Positions 5,215 to 35,127 are shown, numbered from the stretch's first letter. The stretch: DNA of 64,000 nucleotides from an uncultured Candidatus Saccharibacteria bacterium (GCA_964610055.1 CAZSUC010000001.1:431912-495911); one strand, 5' to 3'. The notes: generated by a model from the letters alone, not told the origin. Made by a program: numbers and translations.

Positions 5215-5828
5215 CCAATCGTTTCTTTAACTGTCATACTAGTAATAATCGCTGCCCTTTCTTGTTCGTCTAGCTTCATGCGAATGTAACGAATTGTGCT
5301 TTTAAGCTGCGGAATTAACACATGCTCTAAAGCATTAACGCGTCGTCGAGTTTTTTCAATTTCTTCTGCGAGTAACTGTGCTGTTTTTTCTACCGCTGCT
5401 AATTCTAAGAGTCGAGGCAATACTTTTTGCAAGGCGGCTTGTCCTGCATCTAATTCAGCTGAAGTTTCCCAAACACCATATGTTTGTTTGGTGTCTTGCA
5501 AACTAATTTCAAAATGCGGAATCTTAACTCCCATCACATTTTTTTCACTCACGCCCAAGTCTAATTTTTGAGTTTGTACATGCCGCACCACTTGAACTGC
5601 CTGTGGCTCCATGGCGGCCTCTGCCATCATAAAATGCTTTAACGCCGCAACTAATTCCAAATCAACCGCTTGGCGCAAACTGTGAGCTTGCCGCACAATT
5701 TTCATAAATTCTTGCATTAAGCCATCTCTCTTCTCTTTCAGGAGCTTATGTCCTTTTGCCGCTAAAGCCGCGCGCTTTTTTAAGCGCAGCAGCTCCATGC
5801 GGGTTGGATTTACACGTAGCTGGGACAT
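5211..5828 (-). CDS. atpD: A/V-type ATP synthase subunit D
   Basis: 205 aa; signature N-terminus NPTRMELLRLKKR. Confidence 0.9.
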   Translation of the reverse strand: MSQLRVNPTRMELLRLKKRAALAAKGHKLLKEKRDGLMQEFMKIVRQAHSLRQAVDLELVAALKHFMMAEAAMEPQAVQVVRHVQTQKLDLGVSEKNVMGVKIPHFEISLQDTKQTYGVWETSAELDAGQAALQKVLPRLLELAAVEKTAQLLAEEIEKTRRRVNALEHVLIPQLKSTIRYIRMKLDEQERAAIITSMTVKETIG

Positions 5829-5848
5829 ACTTGAACTTATTTAGAGAA

Positions 5849-17357: not shown

Positions 17358-17638
17358 ATTACTTCTTCAATCATCTGAATACATCACTCTTCTTCTTGAA
17401 AAAAGAGCCTTTGTGAAGACGATAAGCAAGCCTATCATCAAGGTGACGCATCGGGGTGCCAATCAACTGCCTGCACTGGGGACATGTCAGGTTCTCCATA
17501 TCTTGCGGGCACTGAATGTCCGCCCGTCCCTGTAGCTCCGATAAGTGAAGTTGAGAGAAACCTAGCTGTTCCTCCGTGCTCCTTACGATACCTGTCATTC
17601 TTCAGCGTGAACTGTTGTTTCGGTTGTGACATGGTTTT

Positions 17639-18445
17639 TTAATTAACTTTGTTAGTACATCCAGCGTCAATTAGTTGTTGCTGATATTGAGCTCTGTATT
17701 GAAATAGCGCAATTTGCTCCTCGGCACTCGAACTAAACTGATTACTATGAGAGGCGAGAAATTCATTCCTTAGGTCATACCATTCGCCAGCAGCAGCGTC
17801 GCATGCTTGCCGGTGCTTAAGTTCAAGCGCCGCAATGTCTGCATCATACTTAGTCTTTTCCTCTGCCTGCTTGTTCAACTCTTCTTGGTGTGCATTTAAT
17901 TTATCCATACACTCTTGCGCAGTAATATAGTAATAATTCGTGCCAACATGACAACTCATCTTCATTGGCGTGTATGCTGGTACATCAACTGGCTCGTCGG
18001 TTGGCGTAGCTTTAGGCGTAGCTTTTGCTGCCTTAGCTTGCTTTGCGTATAAGGCATCACATTCCGTTGTCCAAACAACCTGCCATTTCCCAGAAGCAAC
18101 TTCGCATTCTGTTTTTGTGCCAGCGCATTCACTTTGTTTGATGGCTAGTGTGCCTACATGAGGATATTCACAATTCACAATCGGGTCAGCATCTACAATG
18201 GGTGATGATTTGCTGGTTTTGGCACTAAGTACCGCTGGATTTGATGTGGATTTTGTTGGGAAAGACGGGCTAATGCTTATAGTGGGTGCAATTGAAGGAG
18301 CTATAGGGACGGTTGCTATAGCTTCGCTCTTCACATTCAATTGTTGCTCAATTCTGTTATTTACCACATTACCAACACCAAAAATTAGACCTCCCGTAAT
18401 AGTACAGGCCAACACCGTTCCAATCATATTACTATGCAGCATCAT
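17639..18445 (-). CDS. hypothetical Cys-rich secreted/membrane-anchored protein
   Basis: 268 aa; N-terminal TM, Pro/Ser/Thr-rich linker, 8 Cys in C-terminal half. Confidence 0.4.
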   Translation of the reverse strand: MMLHSNMIGTVLACTITGGLIFGVGNVVNNRIEQQLNVKSEAIATVPIAPSIAPTISISPSFPTKSTSNPAVLSAKTSKSSPIVDADPIVNCEYPHVGTLAIKQSECAGTKTECEVASGKWQVVWTTECDALYAKQAKAAKATPKATPTDEPVDVPAYTPMKMSCHVGTNYYYITAQECMDKLNAHQEELNKQAEEKTKYDADIAALELKHRQACDAAAGEWYDLRNEFLASHSNQFSSSAEEQIALFQYRAQYQQQLIDAGCTNKVN

Positions 18446-18446
18446 A

Positions 18447-19157
18447 CTAATGCGATTGCAAGTAGCCGACCAAGCTGTAGGTATTAATACCAGAGGAGAG
18501 AAATGAGTTTGTTGTTAGATAACCAATAAAGGTGTTGCCAAGAAAAATTCTAGGTGGAGTAGATGTGTAGTTATTGAATGGGCTTTGTGATGAGTAAGCC
18601 CCACCATATCGACCATATTCATTGAAGATGCTTTTTGAGGAGTATTTACTTCCATAGGTTCCGTACGAATTAATAATAGAATTAGAGCTGTACTGATTCG
18701 AGGAAATAAGCCCTAGATATGTGCCATCATTGGCAATAAGCACGCCTATCCCATCAAGTTGAACAAATACATCAGAAAGTGTTAGTAATGGAGCAACACT
18801 TGCCACAGTTGAAGTACTGTTAGTTTTAGGGGTAACGCTTACGGCTTTCTTAGCGCTAGTATCTGGCATTGTAAGGCCTTTAGCCTTCTGAAACGCCATA
18901 GCCCCCTTCAAGGCTTCTTCTGTCTTTTTGTCGGTTCTAGCTCGCTTCTTCCAATATTCGCTTTCCATCGCATTTATTTTTTTACTAAAAACCTCACCAA
19001 AAATACGCTCAACAACTAATGGCACGTTTTTGTTGGGAATCAAATCCGAATCTTGTTGCGTTGCCGCAAGTCCATCTATAGGCCAAACAAACATCAACAA
19101 ACCAGTTGCTAATATTATAAATACGCCTTTTCTAAAATCTGTATTTAGTGGATTCAT
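18447..19157 (-). CDS. hypothetical secreted protein with Tyr/Gly/Ser short repeats
   Basis: 236 aa; signal peptide; C-terminal repeats NSYGTYGSKYSSKSIFNEYGRYGGAYSSQSPFNNY. Confidence 0.4.
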   Translation of the reverse strand: MNPLNTDFRKGVFIILATGLLMFVWPIDGLAATQQDSDLIPNKNVPLVVERIFGEVFSKKINAMESEYWKKRARTDKKTEEALKGAMAFQKAKGLTMPDTSAKKAVSVTPKTNSTSTVASVAPLLTLSDVFVQLDGIGVLIANDGTYLGLISSNQYSSNSIINSYGTYGSKYSSKSIFNEYGRYGGAYSSQSPFNNYTSTPPRIFLGNTFIGYLTTNSFLSSGINTYSLVGYLQSH

Positions 19158-19261
19158 GGTAATTTAACTGGTCTATTTAGATACTTTTGGTATACCACTC
19201 TTAGAGAAAAGCTACAAGCTGTATGTAGACCGTATGTAGCACAAGGAAGACGCTTAAATTA

Positions 19262-19465
19262 ATGACCGACATACGAACTAAGTTTGGTAAACGAATCCAG
19301 AAGCTACGTCTTTCGCGAGGTATATCGCAAGAAAAGCTTGCTCACTCCGTAGGCGTACATCGAACCTACATGGGATTCGTGGAGCGTGGCGAACGAAACC
19401 CCACTCTGACCAAAATTGAACGCATAGCTAAAACCCTTGATGTTTCGATACGGGATTTATTTTAG
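19262..19465 (+). CDS. XRE-family HTH transcriptional regulator (Cro/CI-like)
   Basis: 67 aa; LRLSRGISQEKLAHSVGVHRTYMGFVERGERNPTLTKIERIAKTL HTH_3 pattern; RBS AAGGAAG. Confidence 0.85.
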   Translation: MTDIRTKFGKRIQKLRLSRGISQEKLAHSVGVHRTYMGFVERGERNPTLTKIERIAKTLDVSIRDLF

Positions 19466-19819
19466 CGTCCAATAACAAACTTACGCCTAATTGCTCAGAA
19501 GGCTATCATCTATTTTGATCATGGTGCCAAAAAAGACTTGAGAATTGATTCCTCTGTTTCTAATAAGTTTGAGCCAGAAAAAACGGCGTACAATATGTAC
19601 AAAATAGCGAATCTAGAAAAATCATGGGACCTAAGTCCGGATCAGTTCGCCACCTTGGTTTCGAACCAAAAAAGAGATACCAGGAGCGGAAAATAAGAGG
19701 GTCTTGAGAGGTGTTTAGGACGGACTTTCGAACCGAAAATGAGACAGTTTGAGACACTATAAAAAAGAGGGTGTTTCGTGTCTCATTTATTGGACTTTGC
19801 AAATATTTTGTGGCCTAAC

Positions 19820-20146
19820 CTACTTTGATCTAGGCGAACAAACAAACCAATCTTGGTTCTTCGGGTTTACCCGCTCAAACTCAATTCCATTCCATTCATA
19901 AAGCAAGCAATACCAGGATTCATCAGCATGTAAACTACTCACATCACGAGCAATTACATCATCGCTTAGCTTTTCAAACTTTCGCTCCTCACCATTTAGT
20001 AAAGTGTAATCCGTTACTTCAACCTTAAAGGCAATTTCAATTCCCCCCTTCGCTTCATTTGAGTATATCCCTCCTTTACGGATCATGATGCTGGGTTCTC
20101 CTGTCGACCAATTGAATTTCTCGTCTTTATCCATAGCACTACTCAA
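19820..20146 (-). CDS. hypothetical protein, last gene of TIR operon
   Basis: 108 aa; start overlaps stop of TIR gene (ATGA); no recognisable domain. Confidence 0.45.
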   Translation of the reverse strand: MSSAMDKDEKFNWSTGEPSIMIRKGGIYSNEAKGGIEIAFKVEVTDYTLLNGEERKFEKLSDDVIARDVSSLHADESWYCLLYEWNGIEFERVNPKNQDWFVCSPRSK

Positions 20147-21123
20147 TTACCCTCATATTCACGCTCAATATGCTCAACCAAGTTCTCCCACAACAACTCA
20201 AGTAGCTCAGAGGTAGTCAACAAGACCTTACCAACGCCTACTGGCTTTAGTAAACTCACATCCATCAAGTTAATAACATATGAATCCTTTTCTTGACTCC
20301 ACTCAATTCCACCAAACGCATGCATTGCTTTGCGATCAAAACGCCGATCAGTCCACTGATAGAACGATATGTCATCATCACCAGTCATCCCACCAAGCCA
20401 GATAGCAAGATTGTAAATTTTCTTATTTCCACTTCTAACACGAACAATCCGCTCTCCATTACGATTAACTAACGAAACTTGAATACCTCTATCCTTAAGC
20501 AACTCCCCTCGCTTAACTAGCTCATCGACAAGAGAATCTACAACATAATCTGGGTCACTAGATGGATCATGTTCAATCGTTGGGATCCGCGGCAACCTAA
20601 TATTAACAGCGGGAGACACGGTCTGGGGTACTGACTCAACAACAACTTCACCACTAGGCGGCTGCACTTTCGCTGCTATACTTTGAGCTAACTCCTGAGG
20701 CGTAATTCTATTATTTCGCGCGTCGAGGTACTTAGTAGTTGGGTTTAACTGCTCTGGTAGCTCATCTCCTTGCAGCATAACTGGTAGAATGTAATCTCTC
20801 TTTCCACTTAAAACGCCCTGCGATAGCGCACTCTCTAACTCATGCGTTGTAAATGCCTTCTGTTGATAGATATCAGTAACAAAGATGACACAATAACTAG
20901 CACGACCTTTCCCAAAAATATTTTGTAGATACCCCGGCAAGCTATGGCCCCACATTTCCGTCTCTATATCTGGATCACGATCGTAAAATACAGAAACGCC
21001 TCTCTTCCGTAACTCACTATACACAGCTTCTACATATTCACGATCTTCACCTGCATAAGACAGCGCAACAGAATAAGTCGCTTTCTCTTCATTGGTACTG
21101 CTTTGTTCGTGCTTATTAACCAT
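20143..21123 (-). CDS. TIR-domain protein with ~170-aa C-terminal domain of unknown function
   Basis: N-terminal YSVALSYAGEDREYVEAVYSELRKRGVSVFYD and SYCVIFVTDIYQQKAFTTHELESAL match TIR motifs including the catalytic Glu position. Confidence 0.7.
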   Translation of the reverse strand: MVNKHEQSSTNEEKATYSVALSYAGEDREYVEAVYSELRKRGVSVFYDRDPDIETEMWGHSLPGYLQNIFGKGRASYCVIFVTDIYQQKAFTTHELESALSQGVLSGKRDYILPVMLQGDELPEQLNPTTKYLDARNNRITPQELAQSIAAKVQPPSGEVVVESVPQTVSPAVNIRLPRIPTIEHDPSSDPDYVVDSLVDELVKRGELLKDRGIQVSLVNRNGERIVRVRSGNKKIYNLAIWLGGMTGDDDISFYQWTDRRFDRKAMHAFGGIEWSQEKDSYVINLMDVSLLKPVGVGKVLLTTSELLELLWENLVEHIEREYEGN

Positions 21124-21167
21124 GACAACACATTATGCCACGACAGTATCAGAAAGTGAACACTACT

Positions 21168-22919
21168 TTAAGATGATGTATCGACCGTAATTCCATCTTC
21201 AACCCAAGGGAATTCAAATTCCACATCTATTCTTGCCTTCTTGGGATACTTCTTCAGAAAATTCTCATTTTCATCCACTAGATAGATGGTGCAGTAATCT
21301 GATCCATCGACACGTTTAAGCTTTCGACCATTCAGGACACCCTTCCGCTCCAACGCCTTTCTCGTCGATGGATGAACACTATAGTCATAATTCGTTTGCC
21401 ATTCAGTAAACCAGGTATCCTCGTTATCGCTGTGTAGTGAGGGGATAATGCCTTCCTTAATGTTACGCCAACAGTCAGCGCAGCGAAGTCCATCAAGATT
21501 CCACCATGCTTTACTGCCAGGCATATTCTCACCACAAATACCACAGGTATACATACCACCCTCACTATCTTCTAAAAAGAATCCATCCGGCTCTTTCTCA
21601 AGTCTGCGCTTGCGTGCGTTCTCGATACCTTCAAACTCACCAGACATTTTAGCTAATTGCACCCAGTTGTTGTTGGCATGCTTTCGCTTCATCTCTTCCG
21701 TTATTTTCGCAGCTGGCTTCTTTGGTTGTTCTTCTGTATATAGCTCCATTAAGTCCTCTTCTCGTTCATAGCCACGAATACGTCCAGATAAATATCCGAG
21801 GCGGTAAGAGATATGACCAGACAAGAGTCGCCAGTTTGTATCCTTGAGAGTTTCCTTGATAAGCTGTCGTAACTCATATTCACTGGCGCGGGTACTACGG
21901 TTAGGGTCAGCATCCTGAACACTGAATGGAAGAATGAAATTCATACCATCCTCTGGCTTTCCAAGCGAGAATTCCATGTACTGCGCTTTTTCGAGAGGCT
22001 TAATGAGCTTCTTCTTAAGATCGGCGACCTTAATTTTCTTAAGCTTTGACACTTCAGCATACGCCTGACCCTCATATTTCTCTCGCTCTTCCTTCAGAAC
22101 AACTGAAGCGACTTCAAGTGCTTCTCGTTGATCAAGGGCGGCTTTGCCCTGTTCTTCGGTAAGACAGAATAGGTGACGATATTTTTTAAGTAGTGCCTCA
22201 TCCTTTTTCTTCTCTTTTTCCTTTTCAGCTTCAAATTCTGAGAAGTCATCTATTTCAGTAGCTGAATATCCACATGCTTTACATGCACTTGTAGTAGTAA
22301 CAACATCACCCTTTCTTTTAGATGTTACGGTTATTTCTTTCCCACACTCGGGACATAGGTCTGGCTCTGGCTTCCACTCCTTACCATTCTCAAAGATTGC
22401 TTTTCGTTTTTTGCAATCGGGACAGGCAAAAAAGAACAGCATCTTCGATGGCTTATCATTAATCCCAGTTCGAAGACTCTTAAAGGTGGCGTGCATAAGA
22501 ACACCACACTGACATTGAATATCCTGAGGTGGTGGAGTGTTATCGTATTTATTTTGAAGCTTTTGATCTTTTTCTACCCACTCAGCTATTGTCTTTTCTT
22601 TCTCTTCATAGCGGCCGGTTAGAGTATAGAAGAGTTGATTGTAGAGCATTCGGTTAAGGTGGTTCTTTGTTTGGAGGGGCGTTTCTGTATTTCGAGAGTC
22701 TTTGACCATTTTTTGATACGTTTTCTGGTAGACATCTACTACATCCAGTGCTCGATGGATGGTTATGAGGTCGTAAAGATCAGTGTAGTGTTGCCCCGAC
22801 TTCAAATAGAGAGACTTTTGCATAGCCTCTAGAAGGCCCCTTTCCTTGAGAGCCTTAACCCCATCAGAAGCATGATTGCCAAAGAAATACCCGTAATGAT
22901 AAACGCCTCCTGAATCCAT
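21168..22919 (-). CDS. multi-zinc-ribbon coiled-coil protein of unknown function
   Basis: 583 aa; CxxC pairs QCQCG..CPDCK, CPECG..CKACG, CGICG..CADCW; Lys/Glu-rich coiled coil; alternative start MQKSL at 22823 lies 5 nt after upstream stop. Confidence 0.5.
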   Translation of the reverse strand: MDSGGVYHYGYFFGNHASDGVKALKERGLLEAMQKSLYLKSGQHYTDLYDLITIHRALDVVDVYQKTYQKMVKDSRNTETPLQTKNHLNRMLYNQLFYTLTGRYEEKEKTIAEWVEKDQKLQNKYDNTPPPQDIQCQCGVLMHATFKSLRTGINDKPSKMLFFFACPDCKKRKAIFENGKEWKPEPDLCPECGKEITVTSKRKGDVVTTTSACKACGYSATEIDDFSEFEAEKEKEKKKDEALLKKYRHLFCLTEEQGKAALDQREALEVASVVLKEEREKYEGQAYAEVSKLKKIKVADLKKKLIKPLEKAQYMEFSLGKPEDGMNFILPFSVQDADPNRSTRASEYELRQLIKETLKDTNWRLLSGHISYRLGYLSGRIRGYEREEDLMELYTEEQPKKPAAKITEEMKRKHANNNWVQLAKMSGEFEGIENARKRRLEKEPDGFFLEDSEGGMYTCGICGENMPGSKAWWNLDGLRCADCWRNIKEGIIPSLHSDNEDTWFTEWQTNYDYSVHPSTRKALERKGVLNGRKLKRVDGSDYCTIYLVDENENFLKKYPKKARIDVEFEFPWVEDGITVDTSS

Positions 22920-25384
22920 CGCGGCTTATAAACAAAAACAACTTCATGAGCTTCTCCTGGCACGTAAACTCCTCGAAATATACTATCCGTTCGATAAACA
23001 GGAACTTCATTCCCATCGACATACGCCTTCCATCCTGGGAAAAGCACGTCTCTCATTACAAGAAATCCGTCACCTTCATTCTTCACTTGTACAGCAACGG
23101 TATTGCGATTGTCCTGGACGCCTAGAACTTCACCAGTGGCTGCAAAGTCCATATTTTCTGAAACACTAGCTACTGCAAAGTTGATATCCTGAGAGTCAAT
23201 ATCTAGTAAGATATTTTTCTGTTCTTTACTACTATCTGCAGATGCCTGTACATGCCTAACAAAATGCACTCTAGGAAATGCTTCTTTGTTCTCATAAGTA
23301 CGAATAATCTTATCCCCCAATGGAATTTCTGAGACCTCCTCAAAATCTAGAAGATTATCTGCAAAACGATAAGGTGGGTATAAGCCTATTACATGCGTGA
23401 TAGGGAAACGATTTACCAACGAACGGTTATCTTGCCAAGCTGAACCACTGCCACGATCACCAAGAAATTCTAAATACTTACTCACGTCGTATAGTGGAAG
23501 TGGTCCCGTCCATTGCGCAGTGTTAATTCCAAATCCAGCCGGTGTATAAGGCGCTAATAGTTCATAGCCTTTTATTAGATCATTCGATACTACCAACTGG
23601 AAGGATATGTCAGTCGTGTTATCTCCTGCGATTACAGCTTCACAGTCATCAACGTTCCTACAGGAAAAAAGTTGCCCAGTAGGATTGTACTGATTGCTAT
23701 CAGGGTTTGTATGTATGTATAAACGAGAAGCTTGTTGCTTTTGAGATATATCTGAAGTGATCTCAAAATACATTGCCTGATCCTGAATGTTATCCAATTG
23801 CTCAAAAGAAAACGTACTCCATTCACCATCTCTAATATTTTGAGTAGATATTGAGCTCTTTCTTAGTAAATCACCTCTATCGTCAAATAGCTTCAAGGTA
23901 ATTTCTCCAACCACCGAGGACTCAGAAAGGCGAAGATTAATACCATCAATTTGATTAAAGGGGGAGGAAAAACTTTGCCGATATGCATACTGTGGGACAA
24001 TAGGATTCCAAATCATAATCCCGAAGTTGTTGTGTGGAGCAATTGCCGATAAACGCTCTTTGGAAAAAACTCGTACAAATGAATTTTGACTATTAAAAAA
24101 CTTTGCTACTTCTGGTTCTTGAGTAGCCTGCCAAGACACTTCATCGTGCCATCGCCAAGAAACATAAAAAACAGGAACAATGCTTCCTATAAGAATTATC
24201 ACTGCGAGAACAGTCTTCATTCTTCTGCTATGAGCAAGGTTCACAATCCAGTGAAATCCGATAGCAGAAAGCAAAATTAAACCAATATTAGAAAATAGAA
24301 AGAAACGCGCGGGCGAATTAAAATATCTCCACCCCATATCAACTAACCACACATATACAGCCGAATCTTTTCCGAGGGCTAACACGAAACCAAGATTTGT
24401 AATCACTACAGAAAAAAGCCAAAGGAATCGAAAACTTTTTCTACCAACTAAAAGACCAAACAAAGAGAGAAGTAGCGTTATTGGACCCAAGTAGCTTGAT
24501 AGTTCAGCTTCATTTTTAGGCCCCATATATTCGTCACCATGACCAAACGGATGTGGAATCACTAGCCCCTTTAACGCCTCAATAGGAAAACTAAAATCCA
24601 ATAACTCCTCATCCGTGCTAACACCTTGTGCCCGATCAGTAAAAGGAATGACTTCAACTATTGGCAACCAGTAGAAAGATGTTAATCCAATGACGATGAA
24701 TACACTTATCAGAATCAATAGCGCCCGCTTCCATTTCTTGTAATCAGTGACAAGAAGACACAAAACGAATATCGCTTGTAAAACGAAGATGATGACAGCC
24801 ATCTGAGGATGGCCAACTAATACACAAAGGGAACTACTCAAAATCCAATAAATTAATATACGGACTCCCCCTGTTTTCAAAAACATTTGTAGAAAAAGAA
24901 ATAAAAGTGGCACCCAGGTAAAAGGCAAAATGAGATTAATCATTTCATACTTACCTACAAAGGCTGCCCCTAGTGGCAGCAACAACGCTGCCATCCCGGA
25001 TGCCATAGTCTGAACTTTGTTAAATCTCAAAAAAGAAAAAACACCAATCGCTGCTAATAAGCTGTGAATAAGCATTGAAATATTAAGCGTCCAAACAGCT
25101 GGGAAAAACTGGCGTAAAGCCATATGCAGTGGATAAAAGAAACCTAATTGACCGGTCGCAAGTAATGGGTAGCCACCAGCTAACTCGGGTGACCACAAAG
25201 GCAACTCTCCGGACCTTTGAATGACACCATATAGGTTTTCTAACGCCGTCGTAGTGGTAACGAGGTCGTTATTAAACCACAATCCCCGAAAAACCCACTT
25301 TGTAATAAAGAAAAGGCAGATAATTAAGGCAATAACGCCAAAACTTCTAGTATCAAAATTTAACTGAAAGTTTATTTTCCTCAT
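22829..25384 (-). CDS. YfhO-like polytopic membrane protein (putative GT-C type glycosyltransferase)
   Basis: 851 aa; ~12 TM helices in first ~420 aa then large extracytoplasmic C-terminal domain, the YfhO family architecture. Confidence 0.4.
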   Translation of the reverse strand: MRKINFQLNFDTRSFGVIALIICLFFITKWVFRGLWFNNDLVTTTTALENLYGVIQRSGELPLWSPELAGGYPLLATGQLGFFYPLHMALRQFFPAVWTLNISMLIHSLLAAIGVFSFLRFNKVQTMASGMAALLLPLGAAFVGKYEMINLILPFTWVPLLFLFLQMFLKTGGVRILIYWILSSSLCVLVGHPQMAVIIFVLQAIFVLCLLVTDYKKWKRALLILISVFIVIGLTSFYWLPIVEVIPFTDRAQGVSTDEELLDFSFPIEALKGLVIPHPFGHGDEYMGPKNEAELSSYLGPITLLLSLFGLLVGRKSFRFLWLFSVVITNLGFVLALGKDSAVYVWLVDMGWRYFNSPARFFLFSNIGLILLSAIGFHWIVNLAHSRRMKTVLAVIILIGSIVPVFYVSWRWHDEVSWQATQEPEVAKFFNSQNSFVRVFSKERLSAIAPHNNFGIMIWNPIVPQYAYRQSFSSPFNQIDGINLRLSESSVVGEITLKLFDDRGDLLRKSSISTQNIRDGEWSTFSFEQLDNIQDQAMYFEITSDISQKQQASRLYIHTNPDSNQYNPTGQLFSCRNVDDCEAVIAGDNTTDISFQLVVSNDLIKGYELLAPYTPAGFGINTAQWTGPLPLYDVSKYLEFLGDRGSGSAWQDNRSLVNRFPITHVIGLYPPYRFADNLLDFEEVSEIPLGDKIIRTYENKEAFPRVHFVRHVQASADSSKEQKNILLDIDSQDINFAVASVSENMDFAATGEVLGVQDNRNTVAVQVKNEGDGFLVMRDVLFPGWKAYVDGNEVPVYRTDSIFRGVYVPGEAHEVVFVYKPRWIQEAFIITGISLAIMLLMGLRLSRKGAF

Positions 25385-25530
25385 TTCCTGGTACGGATTT
25401 AGAGGCGAGGGCTATATAAACACAAAGCCCGCCGCCAGCTCGCAATCTTTCGATCGCGCATACCCCTTTCGGGGTATGACCGTACCAGGGCTGCTGAACG
25501 ACGGGTTCAGTATCCTGGTACGGGGTTTCA
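25385..25530 (-). promoter_or_regulatory. structured 5' leader RNA with alternative-pairing elements (candidate translational RNA switch)
   Basis: CCTGGTACGG at 25387-25396 and 25514-25523 and its complement at 25478-25487 (inside GACCGTACCAGG, 25478-25489); perfect hairpins CATACCCC-ttt-CGGGGTATG and CTGAAC-gacgg-GTTCAG; GC-rich vs surroundings; the copy at 25387 abuts the AGGAA-ATG of the downstream gene. Confidence 0.45.
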
Positions 25531-25624
25531 ATGCCATGCCTCGAAAATTGAGGTTTAGGCAAATATTCAGTTATGTATCCATTTTTGCTCTAAACAGGCT
25601 TTAAATCAACTTTTCTAAATACCA

Positions 25625-25652
25625 TTGACGATGAGAGCGTTAAGAGTAAAAT
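25625..25652 (+). promoter_or_regulatory. sigma70-like promoter (TTGACG-16-TAAAAT)
   Basis: TTGACG at 25625-25630, TAAAAT at 25647-25652. Confidence 0.45.
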
Positions 25653-25701
25653 TTACTTAGAAGCAACGCTCGTTTAAAGAATAATAAAAAAGGATACTTC
25701 A

Positions 25702-25758
25702 ATGTCTGCAAAAGACGTAGTTGTATTCCCCTACTCCGACGGAGGCGTGCTCCGATAA
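25702..25758 (+). CDS. 18-codon leader ORF (MSAKDVVVFPYSDGGVLR)
   Basis: ATG with AAGGA RBS 6 nt upstream, between promoter and a strong terminator hairpin. Confidence 0.3.
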   Translation: MSAKDVVVFPYSDGGVLR

Positions 25759-25806
25759 CAAATGTAGAGTAGAGCTGGCAGTTAGCCTCGCGGGCGTAAC
25801 AGCGTA

Positions 25807-25876
25807 GAACTGTTCAGTGAAATCGAAGGTGGTTATTTTAACCATTTATTTTCGATGTCACTGAACAGTTTTTTGT
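25807..25876 (+). terminator. long intrinsic terminator / attenuator hairpin
   Basis: GAACTGTTCAGTGAAATCGAA ... TTCGATGTCACTGAACAGTT (about 20-bp stem, 1 mismatch) followed by TTTTTT. Confidence 0.55.
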
Positions 25877-25947
25877 TGGAGATAAGAAAATAAATAACAC
25901 CTTTGCTATCATCGAGCGTGGCTTTATTTAATCCTTCAAATAAAGTC

Positions 25948-27291
25948 ATGAAAAAGACTCCATACAAAAACCAACAAAATATCGACGTCGAGTACGTCAA
26001 CACAAAGAATCTAAAATCAGCGTCATATAACCCTCGGCATTGGAACGACGACGCAAGGAAGCAGCTCAAAGAGAGTGTGCGGCGATTCGGTCTCGTTGAT
26101 CCGATAATCTGCAATAGTGCTCCTTCTCGGAAAAACACAGTCATTGGTGGGCATTTTCGCTTGGCTGTTGCTAAAGAGCTTGGCTTCAAAGAAGTCCCCG
26201 TCGTTTACGTTAATATCCCTACTCTTGAGCGGGAAAAGGAACTTAATCTTCGACTCAATAAGAATCAAGGTGAATGGGATTTTGACCTATTGGCTGAATT
26301 CGATGAGAAATTACTCGCCGATGTCGGATTTAATTCCGAGGAGCTCGATGAAGTATTTGCTGAAATTGAAACGCCAGAAGAATTCGACCTTGAGAAAGAA
26401 CTTCAAAAACTTGATATCAAAACTGTTGAACTCAAGAAAGGTGACATCGTGCAATTAGGTGACAGTCGGATGCTAGTTGGAGACTCGACTATTGAGGCCG
26501 ATTTCATAAAGCTCATGAATGGTGAACAGGCGGACATGTGTCTGACCGATCCCCCATATTTACTAGATTATTTAAACGCCAAGCGTCATGGCAAAGCAGT
26601 AACAGGATTTGGGGCAAAGCGTGATCGACGGTATCTCGAAACGGATGTTTTACCAGATAACTTCACTGAGCTATGGATGGGTAATATTGCCAAGGTACAA
26701 AAAACAAACTTCAGTATTATCGTCTACGAGAATTGGAAGAATCTGCGCGTTATTTGGGAAGAAATGGAAAAGCACTGGAAAGTTAAGAACATGCTGGTCT
26801 GGCATCTGCCGAATCGCCATCAAGGCTTCTCCGCTAAGCACAAATTCTTCAGCAAGCATGACATCGCAATGGTAGGTGCAAGCAAGAATTCCGATGTCAC
26901 TTACAACCATTCCGAAGAAGCAGATGGTCTTCAAGAAGAATATGAGACTGCTTTGTATGCCATAGCCGGAAAACCACACTGGGAGGGATACAAGAAGGGC
27001 AAGAAAGTGATGCCAACTGACTTCATTGAATTCAATGCTTCTGATGAGAAGCATTCTGGGCAGGGCGTTGTGTTCGGTACCAAGCCCATCGAAATCCTCA
27101 TTCCCTACATCAAGGTACTCACGAAACGTGGCGACTTAATCGTGGAGCCATTCGGAGGATCAGGAAGTACATTGATCGCTGCCACGAAAATGAAGCGACG
27201 CTGCTACATCATGGAAAAATCTCCTGTATACGCGGAAGTGATTCGTAAGCGCTGGGAGAAGCTAACTGGGGAGAAAGGAGTGGTTGTATGA
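25948..27291 (+). CDS. ParB-like nuclease domain / DNA methyltransferase fusion (beta-class N6A or N4C)
   Basis: N-terminal ParB motif GGHFRLAVAKELGFKEVPVVYV; DPPY motif IV (CLTDPPYLL) preceding motif I (VEPFGGSGSTLIAA); ORF track begins at TTG 25903, ATG at 25948 more likely. Confidence 0.8.
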   Translation: MKKTPYKNQQNIDVEYVNTKNLKSASYNPRHWNDDARKQLKESVRRFGLVDPIICNSAPSRKNTVIGGHFRLAVAKELGFKEVPVVYVNIPTLEREKELNLRLNKNQGEWDFDLLAEFDEKLLADVGFNSEELDEVFAEIETPEEFDLEKELQKLDIKTVELKKGDIVQLGDSRMLVGDSTIEADFIKLMNGEQADMCLTDPPYLLDYLNAKRHGKAVTGFGAKRDRRYLETDVLPDNFTELWMGNIAKVQKTNFSIIVYENWKNLRVIWEEMEKHWKVKNMLVWHLPNRHQGFSAKHKFFSKHDIAMVGASKNSDVTYNHSEEADGLQEEYETALYAIAGKPHWEGYKKGKKVMPTDFIEFNASDEKHSGQGVVFGTKPIEILIPYIKVLTKRGDLIVEPFGGSGSTLIAATKMKRRCYIMEKSPVYAEVIRKRWEKLTGEKGVVV

Positions 27292-27722
27292 GCAAGGCAC
27301 TAGCCATAAAGCAGAGTAAGAAAAAAGAAGCATTACTTGAACAGCTCAGGAAAGTACCGATTGTGCAACTTGCCTGCGATCGCACTGACGTAAGTCGAGC
27401 AACGTTCTATCGCTGGAAGAAAAGTGATAAGGATTTTGCCGAAGCCGTTGATGAAGCTCTGCTATCAGGATCTTCGCTTATCAACGACATGGCGGAATCA
27501 AAGCTCATTGCCGCTATCAAAGAGGGCAACATGACTGGGATTATCTATTGGCTGAAACATCATCATCCGGCATATACCACCCGAGTAGAGCTGTCTGTGG
27601 GACCGAAGCAAAACGATGAGCTTACCGCTGAACAGCAGCAAGTAGTTCAAGAAGCGCTAGCAAAAGCAGCCCTTATTGAACAAGGGGAAATTAATTCACT
27701 AAATGAAACCTATGAAAAATAA
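27288..27722 (+). CDS. putative terminase small subunit (HTH)
   Basis: 144 aa; HTH RATFYRWKK; start overlaps methyltransferase stop (ATGA) and its end overlaps the large terminase start. Confidence 0.5.
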   Translation: MSKALAIKQSKKKEALLEQLRKVPIVQLACDRTDVSRATFYRWKKSDKDFAEAVDEALLSGSSLINDMAESKLIAAIKEGNMTGIIYWLKHHHPAYTTRVELSVGPKQNDELTAEQQQVVQEALAKAALIEQGEINSLNETYEK

Positions 27723-29151
27723 TATTCTATCGCCTGAAGTATTAGGTCACTTAATGCGTGACCGCATGGCACGACAAGCAGTAGCCTCTCATAACCATCT
27801 TCTGTTCTTCCATATCTACTTATCCCGATACGTAAAGTACGACACTGCAGAATTTCAACGTAAGCTATTCAAGCTCACCGAGGACTCGAGTATCCGACAT
27901 GCAGCTATCGTTGCATTTCGAGGGTCTGCCAAGACAACCATCATGACGCTTTCATACCCCCTTTGGGCTATCCTCGGTGTTCAGCAGCGTAAATTCGTCA
28001 TGCTTTTAAGCCAGACGCAGGGACAGGCTCAACAAATGCTTGTGAATCTGAAGCGTGAGATTGAGAATAATGAAATATTGCGGAATGACTTCGGTGCTCT
28101 TGAGCACGCAACCGATGAGTGGGGTCGAGAATCACTCGTTATCAAAAAATACGGTGCCAAGATTATGGCGGCTTCGAGCGAAACGAGTGTACGAGGCGTA
28201 CGGTTCGGAGAACACCGACCGGATCTCATCATCTGCGATGACGTTGAAGATTTGCAGTCAACCGCTACCCGAGAGGGACGCAATAAGACATATAACTGGC
28301 TCATGGGAGATATCATCCCAGCTGGAGACCGCAACACCCGAGTTGTTGTTATCGGAAATCTACTGCATGAAGACTCACTCCTCATGCGATTAAAAGAAGA
28401 TATGGATCGTGACCGACTTGATGGAGCCTTTCTGCAATTCCCTCTTTTGGATGAGAATGATAAGCCGCTCTGGCCAGGCAAGTTCCCTGACCAAGAAAGC
28501 ATTGATCGTCTACGTAAGACTGTACCAAGCCTACCAGCCTGGCATCGTGAATACATGCTTAACATTGTTCCAAATCAAGACCAGATTGTGCTTCAAGAGT
28601 GGATTAAATATTACGATAACCTTCCGCCAGAGGAGCGCTACAAAACTGTCGTGGCCGTTGATCTCGCAATCGGACTTGAGAAAAACAATGATTACACAGC
28701 AATCCTAAGTGCTCGCATTTATGGGTATGAAGATAAGATGCAGATATTTATTCTGCCAAATATCATCAACAAACGAATGAGCTTCCCAGACCAGCGCCTT
28801 ACGCTACAATCTGTTGCAGATAGCTTGGGGCATCCCAAGATATACATTGAAGATGTCGCCTATCAAAAATCGTTAATCCAGCAATTGAAAGCCGACGGGT
28901 ACAGTGTTGATGGCGCAAAGGTATTCGGACAAGACAAGTTCTCACGTCTCGAAACCGTAACTCATCTTTTGCAAAACGGTCAGGTGTTCTTCCCTCGAGA
29001 ACGTTCCAAGGAGCTTGTTAATCAGCTAACGGGCTTTGGAATTGAGAAACACGATGACCTAGCAGATGCCTTTTCAATTCTTCTGCAAAAAGCGATCGAG
29101 AATAACCGACGGCGAGGGCGAGTATGGGCACATAAGCCAAAGGGATTCTGA
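27703..29151 (+). CDS. phage terminase large subunit
   Basis: 482 aa; ATPase Walker A-like AFRGSAKTT, Walker B LIICDDVED; C-terminal RNaseH-like nuclease (VAVDLAIG...DYTAI). Confidence 0.8.
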   Translation: MKPMKNNILSPEVLGHLMRDRMARQAVASHNHLLFFHIYLSRYVKYDTAEFQRKLFKLTEDSSIRHAAIVAFRGSAKTTIMTLSYPLWAILGVQQRKFVMLLSQTQGQAQQMLVNLKREIENNEILRNDFGALEHATDEWGRESLVIKKYGAKIMAASSETSVRGVRFGEHRPDLIICDDVEDLQSTATREGRNKTYNWLMGDIIPAGDRNTRVVVIGNLLHEDSLLMRLKEDMDRDRLDGAFLQFPLLDENDKPLWPGKFPDQESIDRLRKTVPSLPAWHREYMLNIVPNQDQIVLQEWIKYYDNLPPEERYKTVVAVDLAIGLEKNNDYTAILSARIYGYEDKMQIFILPNIINKRMSFPDQRLTLQSVADSLGHPKIYIEDVAYQKSLIQQLKADGYSVDGAKVFGQDKFSRLETVTHLLQNGQVFFPRERSKELVNQLTGFGIEKHDDLADAFSILLQKAIENNRRRGRVWAHKPKGF

Positions 29152-29159
29152 TGTGCCAA

Positions 29160-30305
29160 CTAGACAAGGACATCATTGGAAGATTTTTCGCCAAAGAATT
29201 CACTAATCATCTCGTTGTATCTAAAGAAAGCACCAAGTAGTTGGAATGCATAGTCTGGTTGGATAATTCCATCCAATCGAAATAGCTTAATCTTTGTCGG
29301 CTTTCCCCTGCTCCTACTAAGAAGAGGATTCCACTCATCCCTAAATCTCTCATTGTGAACTGCTCGGCTATACGCAAAAACAGATCCATCAAAATGAGTA
29401 AACTTTTGCTGAGACCTATCCCATTCTAAGTGTGCAAACCGGTGCAGTACAACCTTGTCAGTAATTCCAGCACTTCCATTAATTGGCAAAATTTCTTCGA
29501 CAGAAATCGATTTCTTAGGTCCTGTCGACTGATTTTTTATATCAAAGACTGTAGCGTTAATCGGGTAGGTATCGTCCAGTATTTTCTTCTGACTATTTTC
29601 CATCCTCTTGTGCAGTGTCGTTCCTACATAATTTTGATCATTCAAATTTTCAATTGAAAAGTAAGGACCATGCCAATAGTCAGCCTCTACATACTCTAAA
29701 TAGTTCTTCGAATCAGTCATTCGGCTTGGATCAACAGCTAACTTAAGCTCAATATCATTATCATCATGAGCCTTCATCAGCAGGCTAGTTGTATCAGTAA
29801 ACTTTCCCTGAAAAAACCTTCGCAAAAATGGATGATAGTAGATAAGCTTATCTCCAAAAATAATTCCCTGTCTTCTTAAATCAAACAAACTAGCTTCTAC
29901 CAAATTATCACCATCAAACTCCAATTTCTCTTTCTTCAAAAAATCTACCACCAAACCACTGCCACCACGTTCAATATAAAAATTGATTCTCGGGAATAGT
30001 TTATCAACGTCATAGGTTATACATGCAAAAACAATATCTTCAATATTTTCAGAGCCCATTGGAAATAGCAGAAGTTTAAGATCAGGATATTTTTCCATTA
30101 AATCTTGAATATCTGCTTTTTTAACTCTCGTCTTATAAATAGCATCGAGCTTATCGTATAGGTGACGTAGCTGACTGCTATTTAGATAAAAATTTAAACG
30201 AGTAGGAATTCCATCCCTATGAAAAAGCTCTTGGGAAAAGTTGTTGAGCAATTCCTCCTCTGAGCTATTACCACCAACAAAATTGAGAATCGTCTTTTCT
30301 TGCAT
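29160..30305 (-). CDS. hypothetical protein (island cargo, unknown function)
   Basis: 381-aa ORF convergent with terminase large subunit; no recognisable motifs. Confidence 0.45.
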   Translation of the reverse strand: MQEKTILNFVGGNSSEEELLNNFSQELFHRDGIPTRLNFYLNSSQLRHLYDKLDAIYKTRVKKADIQDLMEKYPDLKLLLFPMGSENIEDIVFACITYDVDKLFPRINFYIERGGSGLVVDFLKKEKLEFDGDNLVEASLFDLRRQGIIFGDKLIYYHPFLRRFFQGKFTDTTSLLMKAHDDNDIELKLAVDPSRMTDSKNYLEYVEADYWHGPYFSIENLNDQNYVGTTLHKRMENSQKKILDDTYPINATVFDIKNQSTGPKKSISVEEILPINGSAGITDKVVLHRFAHLEWDRSQQKFTHFDGSVFAYSRAVHNERFRDEWNPLLSRSRGKPTKIKLFRLDGIIQPDYAFQLLGAFFRYNEMISEFFGEKSSNDVLV

Positions 30306-30377
30306 ATAAATAGCATAACATTTGAGGCCAGTTACCTACTTCCCTTGTAGAAAACCTTGCGGCACTGTTGACCTGCT

Positions 30378-31661
30378 ATGAGCGACATCCGCTACTGCCT
30401 ATATGCCAGAAAATCGTCAGAACGGGACGAACTTCAAGCCCTTTCAGTGGATTCCCAAGTAAAAGAGATGCAGGACATGGCTAGACGAGATGGGATTAAC
30501 GTGGTGGAGATATATCGAGAAAGTCACTCAGCTAAAGACTCGGGGCAACGTCCGGTATTCATGAAGCTAATTGAAGATATTAGGAGTAGCAAATTCAATG
30601 GAATTCTGACATGGGCGCCAGACCGCTTAAGCAGAAACGCTGGTGACCTGGGATCACTAGTTGATCTCATGGATCAAAAGAAGCTTGAAGAAATCCGCAC
30701 TCACGGTCAGACATTCCATAACTCGCCGAATGAAAAATTCTTACTCATGATCCTGTGTAGCCAAGCCAAGCTTGAGAACGACAATCGAGGACTAAATGTG
30801 AAGCGAGGCCTGCGCGCTAAGTGTGAGATGGGGTATAGGCCAGGGGTATCGCCGCTTGGGTATCTCAACAATAAATTTGCGAAGAAGGGCGAGAAGAAAG
30901 TTACACTTGATCCCGCTCGCGCGCCCATTATTAGGGAGATGTTCGAGAAGGTCGCATATGAAGGCTACAGCGGCCATCAAATACTAAGATGGATTAACAA
31001 TGAGACCGACTTTACTACCAGATCAGGAAAACAAATGGTGCTAAGCACCGTCTATCTCCTACTTCGCGATACTTACTACTATGGGAAATTTGAATACCCG
31101 AAGGGTAGCGGAAATTGGTACAAAGTTAATCACAAATCAATCATCACTAAGAAGATATTTGATCTGGTACAAGAAAATATCGTGGCTACAAAAAAGCGTA
31201 AGCCCGGAACACTGGAGTTCGACTTCACTCGGCTCATAACTTGCGGTGAGTGTGGCTCTGGAATATCAGCGGAGGAGAAATACAAACAACTTAAAAACGG
31301 ATCAGTAAATAGATATGTGTATTACCGATGCAGTAAGGGCAAGCGAGTAGAATGTCACGAACCGTACGTAAGAGAAGAAAACCTTGTTGAGCAGCTATTA
31401 CAGCTGATAGACAATCTGGATATGGATAAAATGCTTATTAGTAATAAGCTAGCCAAAGAATTAGAAAAGTACCAAAAGTTCGCATCTGGAGTGCTGCAGG
31501 TAGAAGAAATTAGTAGTACGCCAAAAGTAGATATTCGCAGTTATGCGAAGTATGTTTTAAAAGAGGGCAGTCGAAGCGAGAAAAGAGACATCTTATCTTG
31601 TCTGCAAACAAAATTAATTCTTACCAATCAAAAAATTTCTCTTAGAGCGCATAGCAACTAG
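30378..31661 (+). CDS. large serine recombinase
   Basis: 427 aa; resolvase catalytic domain YCLYARKSS...Q; recombinase domain; zinc ribbon CGECGSG...YYRCSKG. Confidence 0.9.
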   Translation: MSDIRYCLYARKSSERDELQALSVDSQVKEMQDMARRDGINVVEIYRESHSAKDSGQRPVFMKLIEDIRSSKFNGILTWAPDRLSRNAGDLGSLVDLMDQKKLEEIRTHGQTFHNSPNEKFLLMILCSQAKLENDNRGLNVKRGLRAKCEMGYRPGVSPLGYLNNKFAKKGEKKVTLDPARAPIIREMFEKVAYEGYSGHQILRWINNETDFTTRSGKQMVLSTVYLLLRDTYYYGKFEYPKGSGNWYKVNHKSIITKKIFDLVQENIVATKKRKPGTLEFDFTRLITCGECGSGISAEEKYKQLKNGSVNRYVYYRCSKGKRVECHEPYVREENLVEQLLQLIDNLDMDKMLISNKLAKELEKYQKFASGVLQVEEISSTPKVDIRSYAKYVLKEGSRSEKRDILSCLQTKLILTNQKISLRAHSN

Positions 31662-31678
31662 TCTAAGTAGGTACCTGC

Positions 31679-34600
31679 CTAAGCACTGCATATAACATCA
31701 AGATCTGTTCCAATAGTTTCTTTCAAGTAACTATGCGCAGCTGCAAGTACGGCTGCTTGCTCCGGGGTATGCGAAGCAAGCGAAAGCCCTGGTTGGACTA
31801 TAACTATCTCTGACCTTATCTCTTTAAACCTACTTACCTTTACATAGCGGTTAAGGTCTGAGGTTTGACCTACCAAAAAACGAGTTGCTCTGACCACTTT
31901 TATCAATCTCTTCTCTCTTCCCAAAACATGGCGGCATAAATCTCTAAATTTCCATTTCCACTTTGCTGACCGAATAGCCTGAGAACACACTTCAACTACA
32001 TCATTTACTCGTTCACCGGGGGTACTTCCCTTTGTAAATTTGCAATGAACCAATGTGAGTCTAATATGATCATCCTCTTCCTTTAAACAAACAAGATCAG
32101 CCGCCTCTCCTGAAGCGTCGTCATTAAATACCACGTCAAAGCCCCCTTCAATGAAATGCTGCGCAGCACGCCACTGAATCGAATCCAAATGCTCAGCGCC
32201 CTCTTTCCACATTGATTCCTTGCTAATGTCCACACCTTCCCAATCCCAAACCTCAAATCTTTCTACGGGAAAAGTGAGATCTTGTGTGCTCTGAGGGCGA
32301 ATCAGAAGGTTGCCATCCAGTTCTGATAGATCCATAAAACGTATTAGTGGAGGATAGTTAGAAAAATACTCTTCAACTTTCACTTCTAAGGAGCCGACTC
32401 GAATTTTTAGTTCCATCGAAGATGAGCGAGTAACCCGAAAGCCCTCTATACCCCCAACAGTTAGTTTAAAAATCCCCCAAACATCTCCTGTACTTGAACG
32501 AAGTTGGAAATCAACCTCACTAGTTGTTGCATCAGAGTGTAGTATTTCGATATCAAACATAGCAATCGATAGCTCATCATCTCCCTTTAGCAGTGTCACG
32601 CGCTCTTCCGACTGACGTATCAACTCTACCGGCCAGTCGATGCTTAATATTTGTGCGTCTGGAAGAGCGGTAACCTCTTCCGGAATCAAAACGTTTTCAA
32701 TAATTTTTTTTGTATCAATAGTATCGTCTTTCAACTTCCTACCAACAGCTTCACACCATCTTACAAGCTCGGGTACAGTCCCGGGCTCACGGGCCCAAAT
32801 ACGGCCCTTATATGAACACCCTATTGTTACCGGCCCACCATTTTCCCAGCCTGTTCCACTCAGGTTTGATTTTATAGATCCAGCTCTTTCTGAAATACTT
32901 AGAGCTTCTGCAACATCAGAACCTGTATACAACGCGTACCTTAAATTACGTCGCCCATGCTTCCGAACTCCCACATTTTGAAAAATCAGGCGATTAATAT
33001 TGCCAAGCGACCGAAAAATTATATCTCCTGATATTATCTGTGTACCACCGACTGCTAATGCAACCTTTTCATGATTTGAAGATTTGTCGCTCGATGACAG
33101 AAAAAGCAACCCTTGATCCTGATCATAGTGAAGAACAAAAAGATCCCATATGCGATCACGAATCTTTTTTGAGCGGGTCCACCGGATCGGTGGCTCCAGC
33201 CGAGTTACAAAATAAAGAGTATTTGTTTCCTCATGAAGCCATACCCTATGCACATTGAGACCTTTTGGTATTCCTTTAAAAAACCTTTTTGGGTTAAAAG
33301 ATGCTGCTTCATAGACAAGGGTACTGAAAGTTGGCCTTAGAAGATGGTGCGATATCTCAAGCTCCTCATCACCGTCAACTTCATCAAGTCTCTGTGACGA
33401 GTTAAGAAATTCAACCAAAGATGCGTGAGACCGAGCAGCATCAGAACTAAGCTCACTTAGAAGGTGGTTCCAGTCAGCATCTTCACTGTAAAGTCTTTCT
33501 AAAGCAGAAGACACACCTTGCTCGGCAATATTCGCAATCACAGTTGCATCACCAATTGACTCAGCAGAACTTCGAGTAAATCTTCCGGTAAATTGCAGAA
33601 GTATTGCTAAACTTTTGTGCGTATCATGAATAGCGGCAACTTTCAGTTGAGGAAGATCAAAACCTTCTCCTAGCATATTAACACACACGACTATTCGACT
33701 CCCTCCAGACCTTAACGTGTCTATCAATCCATCGGTATCAGCTAAATCAGAGTGAACAAGAACAGGGTTAAGATCGGGAGCAATTTCTTGATAAATTTGG
33801 CAAACATAGCTAGCCCTGCTTATGTTTGCACATCTTGCCATCATTATGTGGTTTTTCCCTGAGGCGACATCTTCACGTAAACGATCCACTGCAGCTTTTG
33901 CAATTGCCTGATCGGCTGCCTCTTGGTCAATCTCATAAACTGATTCAAAAGAAATCTTTTTGAAATATCCATCACGCTGTGCCAATTGAAGTGGGTATTC
34001 ATAAATCACTTTCCCATCAACCAACTTCCCATCTCGCCGATATGGTGTGGCAGTAAACTGTAAAACTTTGCACGCAGAAAAATTTTCACGGAAAGATGCC
34101 CAACCCTTTGCTGCGACGTGATGAGCCTCGTCAACAATTAAAGTATCAACTACTTCCGCAACTGCAGGTAGCAGACTAGATGTAACACTTCCAGTTAAAG
34201 CGCTCATGGTAGCTACTACTACGTTGCAATCCTCGAATATGCTGACTTCATCCTTAGTCCGGGGGCGCCTGGTAACTATTCCCACAATAGGGTTTTTTGC
34301 TCCAGGCATTAGGTTCCCAAGTGATCGCAGTAAGCCAAGGGTAAGAAATTTTTTAGCCGTTTGATCGCGCAGCACTCTAGACGGAACCACAACTAGTAAC
34401 CTCCCAGAGGCATATGCGATCAAGGTGGCAAGCATTGTCTCGGTTTTGCCAGTACCTGTGGGCATTACGATGGTAGCTGGCTGATTATTCAAGCTCCAGT
34501 GTGAACCGATTGCATGCAGTCCTCCTATTTGAGGTGGCCTTAAACCCTTCGATACAACATTACCAGCTTTATCCCTCTCCTCAGCATGAAAACTAAACTT

Positions 34601-34999: not shown

Positions 35000-35127
35000 T
35001 TGTTAACCCCATACAATAGTATATCCACGACACTTAGGCACGCCTGGACTTAGGGGCACTTCTGTGCTCCATATGATAATTGAGACCTTGGATAGAGTCC
35101 GGTTGACTCGAACTAAATTGGCTTGCT

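Follow-up and report, generated by a model that had tools for sequence, protein, structure and literature searches.

A putative transcriptional gate with a long terminator-like hairpin before the methyltransferase-terminase operon of a compact phage-like element

In the 64-kb stretch of DNA analyzed here (hereafter, the window), the segment at positions 25625-25876 appears to be a transcriptional gate, in which a promoter-proximal terminator stands before a methyltransferase-TerS-TerL operon and its read-through is regulated; we give this reading a probability of about 0.55. A compact, phage-like integrative element carries the operon. Among related loci, the layout is conserved and orientation-specific, without conservation of the sequence. 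That the promoter fires, that the hairpin terminates, and that read-through is regulated, we infer from the arrangement of predicted features and from its recurrence.

The segment falls within a 563-nt intergenic region, flanked by a minus-strand membrane-protein gene and by the plus-strand packaging operon. The features of the locus are listed below, together with those shared with two homologous leaders, L192 and L180.

19262-19465: control-protein HTH of the R-M control type, defence-type
20143-21123: TIR protein, defence-type
22829-25384, minus strand: 851-aa YfhO-like membrane-protein gene
25441-25561, minus strand: LOOT RNA (Rfam RF03000), 82.9 bits against a gathering threshold of 46.4
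25625-25652, plus strand: predicted sigma-70-like promoter (-35 TTGACG at 25625-25630, 16-nt spacer, -10 TAAAAT at 25647-25652)
25654-25681, plus strand: initial transcribed region conserved in the three homologous leaders (TTAGAAGCAACGCTCGTTTAAAGAA in the window, TTGTAAGYAGTTCTTTT in L192 and L180)
25690-25758, plus strand: Shine-Dalgarno (SD) sequence AAGGA (25690-25694) and 18-codon ORF (ATG at 25702, TAA at 25756-25758) encoding MSAKDVVVFPYSDGGVLR
25731-25781, plus strand: leader segment shared with L192, a helix of CUACUC (25731-25736) and GAGUAG (25767-25772), then CUGGCAG (25775-25781)
25807-25877, plus strand: intrinsic-terminator-like hairpin (25807-25871) and U-tract (TTTTTTGTT, 25869-25877)
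25878-25947, plus strand: 70-nt spacer from the terminator to the methyltransferase start, with no promoter-like site in a consensus scan
25948-27291, plus strand: ParB_N and N6/N4 DNA methyltransferase, ATG at 25948 (Pfam and PHROG matches)
27288-27722, plus strand: small terminase, TerS (Pfam and PHROG matches)
27703-29151, plus strand: large terminase, TerL (Pfam and PHROG matches)
3' of the terminase operon, minus strand: 381-aa ORF
30378-31661: large serine recombinase
31679-34999: ResIII helicase, defence-type

Defence-type genes flank or interrupt the methyltransferase-TerS-TerL-recombinase module in the window and in relatives. The flanks of the two relatives examined encode GmrSD, HsdM, RhuM, AAA_13, a PD-(D/E)XK nuclease, and further methylases, with GmrSD sitting between TerL and the recombinase. 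The module may represent a prophage remnant or a satellite-like element, acting as a hotspot for defence genes. Among the large ORFs scanned next to the module (window 17600-35000; L103, L136, and L028), none matched capsid, portal, or tail families, and the window's element has no recognizable regulatory or structural phage genes. The 583-aa and 381-aa neighbouring proteins have no match in PDB, Pfam, PHROG, or PADLOC. The stretch from 5.8 to 16.5 kb of the window carries cellular genes (V/A-type ATPase, split transketolase, and ribulose-phosphate epimerase).

The hairpin at 25807-25871 has a dG of -33.1 kcal/mol (-29.0 for the antisense strand) and 28 pairs, 3 of them G·U. No other close-spaced inverted repeat in the window ranks higher (its 20-nt arms are 95% complementary), and no hairpin with a T-tract on the plus strand is stronger; host-type terminators elsewhere in the window have stems of 12-14 bp. 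A dedicated scan for hairpins with T-tracts and an inverted-repeat search both found it, and a simple terminator scan did not list it. A U-tract right after a stem is the signature of intrinsic termination. The predicted structure, a G+C-containing stem-loop followed by UUUUUUGUU in one orientation only, conforms to that pattern. The very long, near-perfect hairpin with a U-tract that the original prediction described is thus present, and its T-tract ends 70 nt before the methyltransferase ATG. The entire leader (25655-25885; 231 nt) has a predicted fold of -81.4 kcal/mol (z = -6.8 in comparison to shuffled sequences). An Rfam search of the leader at E <= 10 returned no family, only chance matches of microRNA precursors on the hairpin.

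The TTGACG-16-TAAAAT promoter of the same prediction is also in place, and its position is conserved in an alignment with L192 (TTGACA-16-TATAAT; 12/12) and L180 (TTGACA-16-TAAAAT; 11/12). The site in the window scores 10/12 in the consensus scan, under sigma-70-type rules that may not hold for CPR polymerases, and promoter-like sites in 4 kb are not above chance (6 vs 7.5 +/- 2.9 in shuffles). Transcription is predicted to start at ~25659-25660. Within the initial transcribed region lies CGCTCGTTTAAAGAA (25667-25681), which we take to be boxA-like by its likeness to the rrn/nut boxA. Across leaders, the boxA core GYTCTTT is not significantly enriched (8 matches vs ~4-5 expected); we therefore rejected a boxA-like element as a general leader feature and keep it as a lead for the family of the window, L180, and L192. 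The top enriched 5-mer in the first 45 nt after the -10 is GTAAG (9 of 30 distinct leader promoters vs 1.6 expected; uncorrected p = 2e-5, with some sequences kin to one another). The equivalent position in the window, 25656-25662, reads TAGAAG. GTAAG may correspond to the start site or to an element for pausing or loading; both this enrichment and the boxA-like CGCTCGTTTAAAGAA are weak leads.

Scans with the methyltransferase retrieved 23 viral, 77 genome, and 80 metagenome loci (up to 78% identity). The genome loci come almost entirely from Patescibacteria/CPR MAGs, and the gene order methyltransferase, TerS, (TerL), recombinase is conserved in the relatives. Layouts were counted in the 146 loci whose sequence extends 300 nt or more upstream of the methyltransferase; many of the fetched loci are interrelated, and the counts are therefore not independent events. 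The original prediction had proposed looking for the hairpin in related packaging modules, and hairpins of this kind recur there: at dG <= -25, a hairpin with a T-tract lies upstream of the methyltransferase in sense orientation in 46 of the 146 loci and in antisense orientation in 2, whereas same-length stretches inside the gene give 2 and 0, respectively. At dG <= -20, the counts are 63 sense and 19 antisense upstream, vs 6 and 8 inside the gene. In 43 of these 63 hairpin loci, the upstream neighbour is divergent, absent, or >400 nt away, which argues that the hairpins are not simply gene-end terminators. Sense promoter-like sites (at least 10/12, several 12/12) are found 54-313 nt before the hairpin in 34 of the 63 loci, in comparison to 16 for antisense sites. 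The distance from the hairpin end to the ATG is 4-230 nt across relatives and often <40 nt. Because no promoter-like site follows the window hairpin and the gap in many relatives is only 4-40 nt, transcripts of the operon must cross the hairpin.

The composition of the stems points to RNA rather than DNA as the conserved entity. Specifically, G·U pairs outnumber A·C single mismatches by 195 to 12 in 52 distinct hairpins, whose median length is 28 pairs. Were a DNA palindrome decaying neutrally, the two should be about equally common, and the disparity therefore argues for constraint on the sense transcript. In 47 of the 52 hairpins, the sense strand folds more stably than the antisense strand (Wilcoxon 7e-9), a comparison that is biased because the hairpins were picked on sense energy; the count of G·U vs A·C is less affected. 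Taken together, the stem sequences indicate that selection acts on the sense-strand RNA of these hairpins.

A strong hairpin is missing from about half of the loci, and in many of these a co-directional 184-306-aa ORF abuts the methyltransferase instead. In hairpin-less loci of this layout (L001, L004, L100-L105, L109, L119, L123, L126, L132, and L172), the ORF lies 35-92 nt upstream; its products share a '..R..LNIP..G' motif and a C-terminal HTH-like stretch, with only weak matches to Sigma70_r4_2 and HTH_7. This ORF may encode a late-gene regulator that replaces the terminator gate. A separate leader subfamily (L006, L121, L163, L166, and L177) has a small GC hairpin, GAGGC-loop-GCCUC, just 5' of the long hairpin. 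The long hairpin of this subfamily begins with GCCC, and a homologous 115-164-aa ORF, a candidate regulator of the subfamily, always precedes the leader. The GAGGC-loop-GCCUC arrangement is absent from the window.

Only two true homologs of the window leader, L192 and L180, were found among the fetched loci. All three share the promoter position, the initial transcribed region, the terminator stem, and the tail TTTTTTGTT. The terminator 5' arm ACTGTTCAGTGAAATC is identical in L180 (16/16), and the pairing of the stem is kept with altered partners, as 10 of 31 pairs are changed on both sides in at least one of the sequences. The CUACUC/GAGUAG helix is predicted in the folds of both the window and L192 (leader fold z of -4.3 in the latter); L192 retains this helix and CUGGCAG, whereas L180 is without both. 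When the intergenic region was compared by blastn with 255 loci, only its LOOT part matched, except for the terminator 5' arm in L180 and L192, and a search of the phage collection for leader homologs gave no match. The upstream regions fall into >25 small sequence clusters, and the window joins none of them at E <= 1e-4. A scan of viral contigs with a leader-derived pattern gave 4 matches, all of them unrelated.

The original prediction also contained an RBS-bearing 18-codon ORF, regarded as a possible micro-protein or leader peptide. The ORF is present, with the SD core AGGA (25691-25694) at a reasonable distance of 7 nt before its ATG, and only ~1% of dinucleotide shuffles of the leader contain an ATG ORF this long (18 codons or more) behind an SD sequence. 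These two observations favor translation of the ORF, with a role either for the act of translation, in control of the terminator, or for the peptide as such, but we consider that reading very improbable. The proposed search for the peptide in related phage packaging modules found no tblastn match to MSAKDVVVFPYSDGGVLR in 255 loci. As judged from the alignments, the ORF is not conserved even where the leader RNA is: L192 has no ORF of at least 8 codons, and its frame aligned to the window ORF has no start codon and an in-frame TAG, whereas L180 is missing the whole central leader segment, including the ORF region. The bases of the ORF segment that are conserved form an RNA helix, CUACUC/GAGUAG, which overlaps the C-terminal half of the ORF. 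Any SD-preceded small ORF is found in just 3 of 30 distinct promoter-leader units, and none resembles the MSAKDVVVFPYSDGGVLR ORF. The stop codon is 49 nt from the hairpin, which would leave a ribosome too far away to affect it, and the upstream leader shows no excess of pairing with the terminator 5' arm (mean z of -0.48; 11.7 vs 11.2 cross pairs; z of +1.9 in the window). The peptide has no run of regulatory codons, and, unlike type I toxins, for which a conserved and usually hydrophobic ORF is expected, it is neither conserved nor hydrophobic. The 18-codon ORF is probably incidental and not a functional gene, and the comparison supports neither the micro-protein nor the leader-peptide claim.

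If the leader is a gate, polymerase would start at the TTGACG-16-TAAAAT promoter (~25659), transcribe a leader of ~150 nt, meet the 28-bp hairpin and U-tract (25807-25877), and stop by default. An ~218-nt non-coding RNA would be released and the packaging genes would remain silent, the operon being expressed only on read-through of the hairpin. Read-through would be brought about by a trans-acting factor that makes polymerase terminator-resistant, in the logic of lambda Q at PR'-tR', or, alternatively, by cis-acting leader RNA, in the logic of HK022 put or Tn916 canT. Given that no conserved alternative pairing or leader peptide was found, these are the most likely routes. Antiterminator pairing in cis gave no signal above that of shuffled sequence and was rejected, and control of the terminator by an RNA switch appears unlikely. 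The length of the leader before the hairpin varies from 19 to 285 nt, and some leaders have only 19-50 nt; this variability, combined with the lack of excess pairing, favors a factor that acts on polymerase over attenuation by a riboswitch or a peptide.

The hairpin lies inside the operon's only evident transcription unit, and by location it is therefore an attenuator. The attenuator reading of the original prediction is supported in this general form, in that a sense promoter-leader-hairpin unit recurs in unalignable relatives, but not in its leader-peptide version. The self-contained sRNA that was offered as the other option corresponds to the predicted default product and is possible, yet insufficient as an account of the locus, as the operon has no other evident promoter.

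The origin of a putative antitermination factor was sought among nearby genes. Searches of Pfam, PHROG, and PADLOC with the ORFs neighbouring the leader, and with those upstream of it in relatives, returned no Q, N, or other antiterminator. Two upstream ORF families were considered as antiterminator candidates and rejected: the 115-164-aa family is found in only 9 loci, is absent in the window, and has no Pfam or PHROG match, and the 184-306-aa family likewise has no Pfam or PHROG match. Because the element has no recognizable regulatory phage genes, the factor would come from elsewhere, or the gate would be constitutive.

Among known systems, the lambdoid Q cassette offers a close analogy. 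The default product of lambda PR'-tR' is a short '6S' transcript. A Q cassette consists of a promoter, a pause element, a terminator, and then late genes (bioRxiv 10.1101/651190). The window likewise has a predicted sigma-70 promoter with an intrinsic terminator within ~200 nt, directly before late/packaging genes, and a short terminated default RNA is predicted; in both cases the content of the leader would be largely irrelevant, which fits the 19-285-nt leaders. In contrast to the Q cassette, the gene upstream of the window leader is a LOOT RNA gene on the other strand and not a Q gene, and no Q-like Pfam or PHROG match was found in the module or in the upstream ORFs of relatives. The window leader also has no recognizable Q-binding or sigma-dependent pause element, the element leaders have far longer stems (median, 28 bp), the operon opens with a ParB-methyltransferase gene and not with lysis genes, and the host is probably a CPR bacterium. 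By analogy, the leader would work like a lambda PR'-tR'-type late-operon terminator, without being a member of the Q family as defined.

Tn916 has terminators (T1-T3) and a cis-acting canT antiterminator, and its terminators also insulate (PMC11658703). Potentially harmful genes of Tn916 are silenced by the terminators, and only transcripts from one promoter of the element carry a pass (PMC11658703). The element in the window resembles HK022 put and Tn916 canT as an integrated mobile element that would silence potentially harmful genes with terminators, but it differs from them in that no leader RNA structure was found to be conserved across element families and the central domain is dispensable in L180. 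With trp/his/pheA attenuators and with riboswitches and T-boxes it shares a promoter, a leader, and a terminator before the first gene, and the window locus even has a small ORF. However, the element leaders have no competing antiterminator pairing, the ORF is unconserved (absent in L192, L180, and 27 of 30 leaders) and distant from the hairpin, and the leader contains no conserved aptamer and gives no covariance-model match in Rfam, while leaders of different families do not align. The leader can be classed neither as a riboswitch or leader-peptide attenuator nor as a piece of LOOT.

The most serious rival to a regulated gate is a fixed, leaky one, that is, a constitutive insulator or dampener that is never switched off, blocks read-through from outside, and passes a fixed small fraction of transcripts from the leader promoter, which would set a low level of methyltransferase and terminase. 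We regard this as possible but on the unlikely side. It fits the lack of an antiterminator gene or cis antiterminator structure in our searches and the reduced appearance of the element, which is without structural or regulatory phage genes, and the insulation of integrated mobile elements by terminators has documented precedent (Tn916 T1; PMC11658703). Against it, the 28-bp stem with U6 is far stronger than the window's host-type terminators, which would be odd for a leaky element; a conserved, dedicated promoter sits directly before the terminator; and the upstream neighbours, LOOT and the 851-aa gene, are encoded on the opposite strand, which leaves little outside transcription to block.

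It is less probable still that the segment is a self-contained small-RNA gene, whose ~218-nt product acts in trans while the operon uses an unrecognized promoter. The promoter and the strong terminator do delimit a discrete RNA that is predicted to be stable in both the window and L192, and the two share conserved segments outside the terminator, but leaders are not conserved between families, some have barely any sequence before the hairpin, and L180 has dispensed with the central domain. Moreover, the leader belongs to no Rfam family, it has no specific complementarity to the neighbouring LOOT RNA, and the unit is always sense-oriented directly before the methyltransferase. A further reading, that the inverted repeat acts as DNA (a pac/cos, recombinase, or ParB-domain site) or as a 5'-UTR element for RNase III or transcript stability, strikes us as distinctly improbable. 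Stems of ~28 bp exceed what termination needs and are long enough for RNase III, and the repeat adjoins terminase genes. Nevertheless, G·U exceeds A·C by 16:1 and the U-tract occurs only in the sense orientation, both of which reflect constraint on sense RNA and not on duplex DNA, and a U-tract placed right after the stem is what intrinsic termination predicts. Processing by RNase III after read-through would be compatible with the regulated gate rather than a rival to it.

The LOOT RNA next door is a different RNA on the opposite strand of the same intergenic region. Its 5' end is 64 nt from the -35 of the leader promoter and points away from it, and no LOOT match falls within 25625-25876 on the plus strand. 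To our knowledge, LOOT has been described only from ocean metagenomes, with no assigned organism. We found it in 49 of 256 fetched loci (including L024, L136, L139, L142, L156, L157, L159, L180, L224, L232, L243, L249, and L251), nearly all with a methyltransferase, terminase, or serine-recombinase homolog nearby, and the genome loci that carry it are CPR MAGs. Its placement varies: in some loci it diverges from the methyltransferase or, at a distance of up to 300 nt, from the start of the recombinase, and in others it follows closely on the recombinase or converges with TerS/TerL. The divergent LOOT/leader/methyltransferase layout of the window occurs in 10 loci. In L180, whose leader is the most similar, LOOT lies downstream of the operon instead, and the two RNAs are therefore separable. 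Pairing between LOOT and the leader or terminator, considered on account of CUGAAC/GUUCAG in both RNAs, was rejected, as the cognate duplex energies are no better than those of non-cognate or shuffled pairs.

Several further observations concern LOOT itself. In most loci (e.g. L136, L139, L155, and L156), a conserved block lies ~130 nt upstream of it, reading CTGTTGGTAAC .. CTTCGCAA .. TAAGCTA .. (TGn)TATAAT .. ACAATTTAAT .. CCTAAAC, of which window positions 25562-25620 are a degenerate version. This block could be a promoter with an operator, or a recombination site. A conserved GCUGGCGGCG is found just 3' of the Rfam model, and the 121-nt model probably falls short of the full functional LOOT unit. 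The first hairpin of LOOT and its flanks presumably resemble the P4-J4/5-P5 element of group I introns, and true group I introns (RF00028; L032 7842-8176, L042 4079-4337, and L083 1017-1211) were among the matches to a LOOT-derived pattern (CCTAAAC, hairpin, GCATGG ... CGAAAG). The LOOT region of the window has no group I match at E < 10. A tmRNA interpretation of LOOT-like 5' motifs was rejected, since ARAGORN found none and Rfam identified the sequences in question as group I introns. In viral contig L028, an RVT_1 reverse-transcriptase gene (5791-7071, minus strand) ends 138 nt upstream of LOOT (5538-5653, minus strand), in the place occupied by the serine recombinase in other loci.

Hardly any work has addressed gene regulation in CPR/Patescibacteria or in their mobile elements, as very few of these bacteria have been cultured. 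Most of the interest of the locus lies in how widely the layout is conserved among CPR elements and in the link to LOOT. A terminator gate that recurs in one orientation before terminase genes provides a testable hypothesis on how a DNA-cutting packaging machine is kept silent, and the combination of variable leaders with very long stems is a data set from which CPR terminators and promoters could be learned. Placing LOOT in a defined neighbourhood, the methyltransferase-terminase-serine-recombinase modules of CPR bacteria, makes its function approachable. More speculatively, and with a good deal less confidence than in the gate itself, the promoter, short leader, and 28-bp terminator may be the cis target of a novel antitermination system for compact, satellite-like CPR elements. 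If so, the packaging operon would be turned on by a protein other than Q, or by a leader RNA that suffices on its own, in an undescribed family of elements that carry a ParB-methyltransferase, small and large terminases, and a serine recombinase without capsid genes, and that, with their defence cargo and orphan LOOT RNA, would package themselves into the capsids of helper phages.
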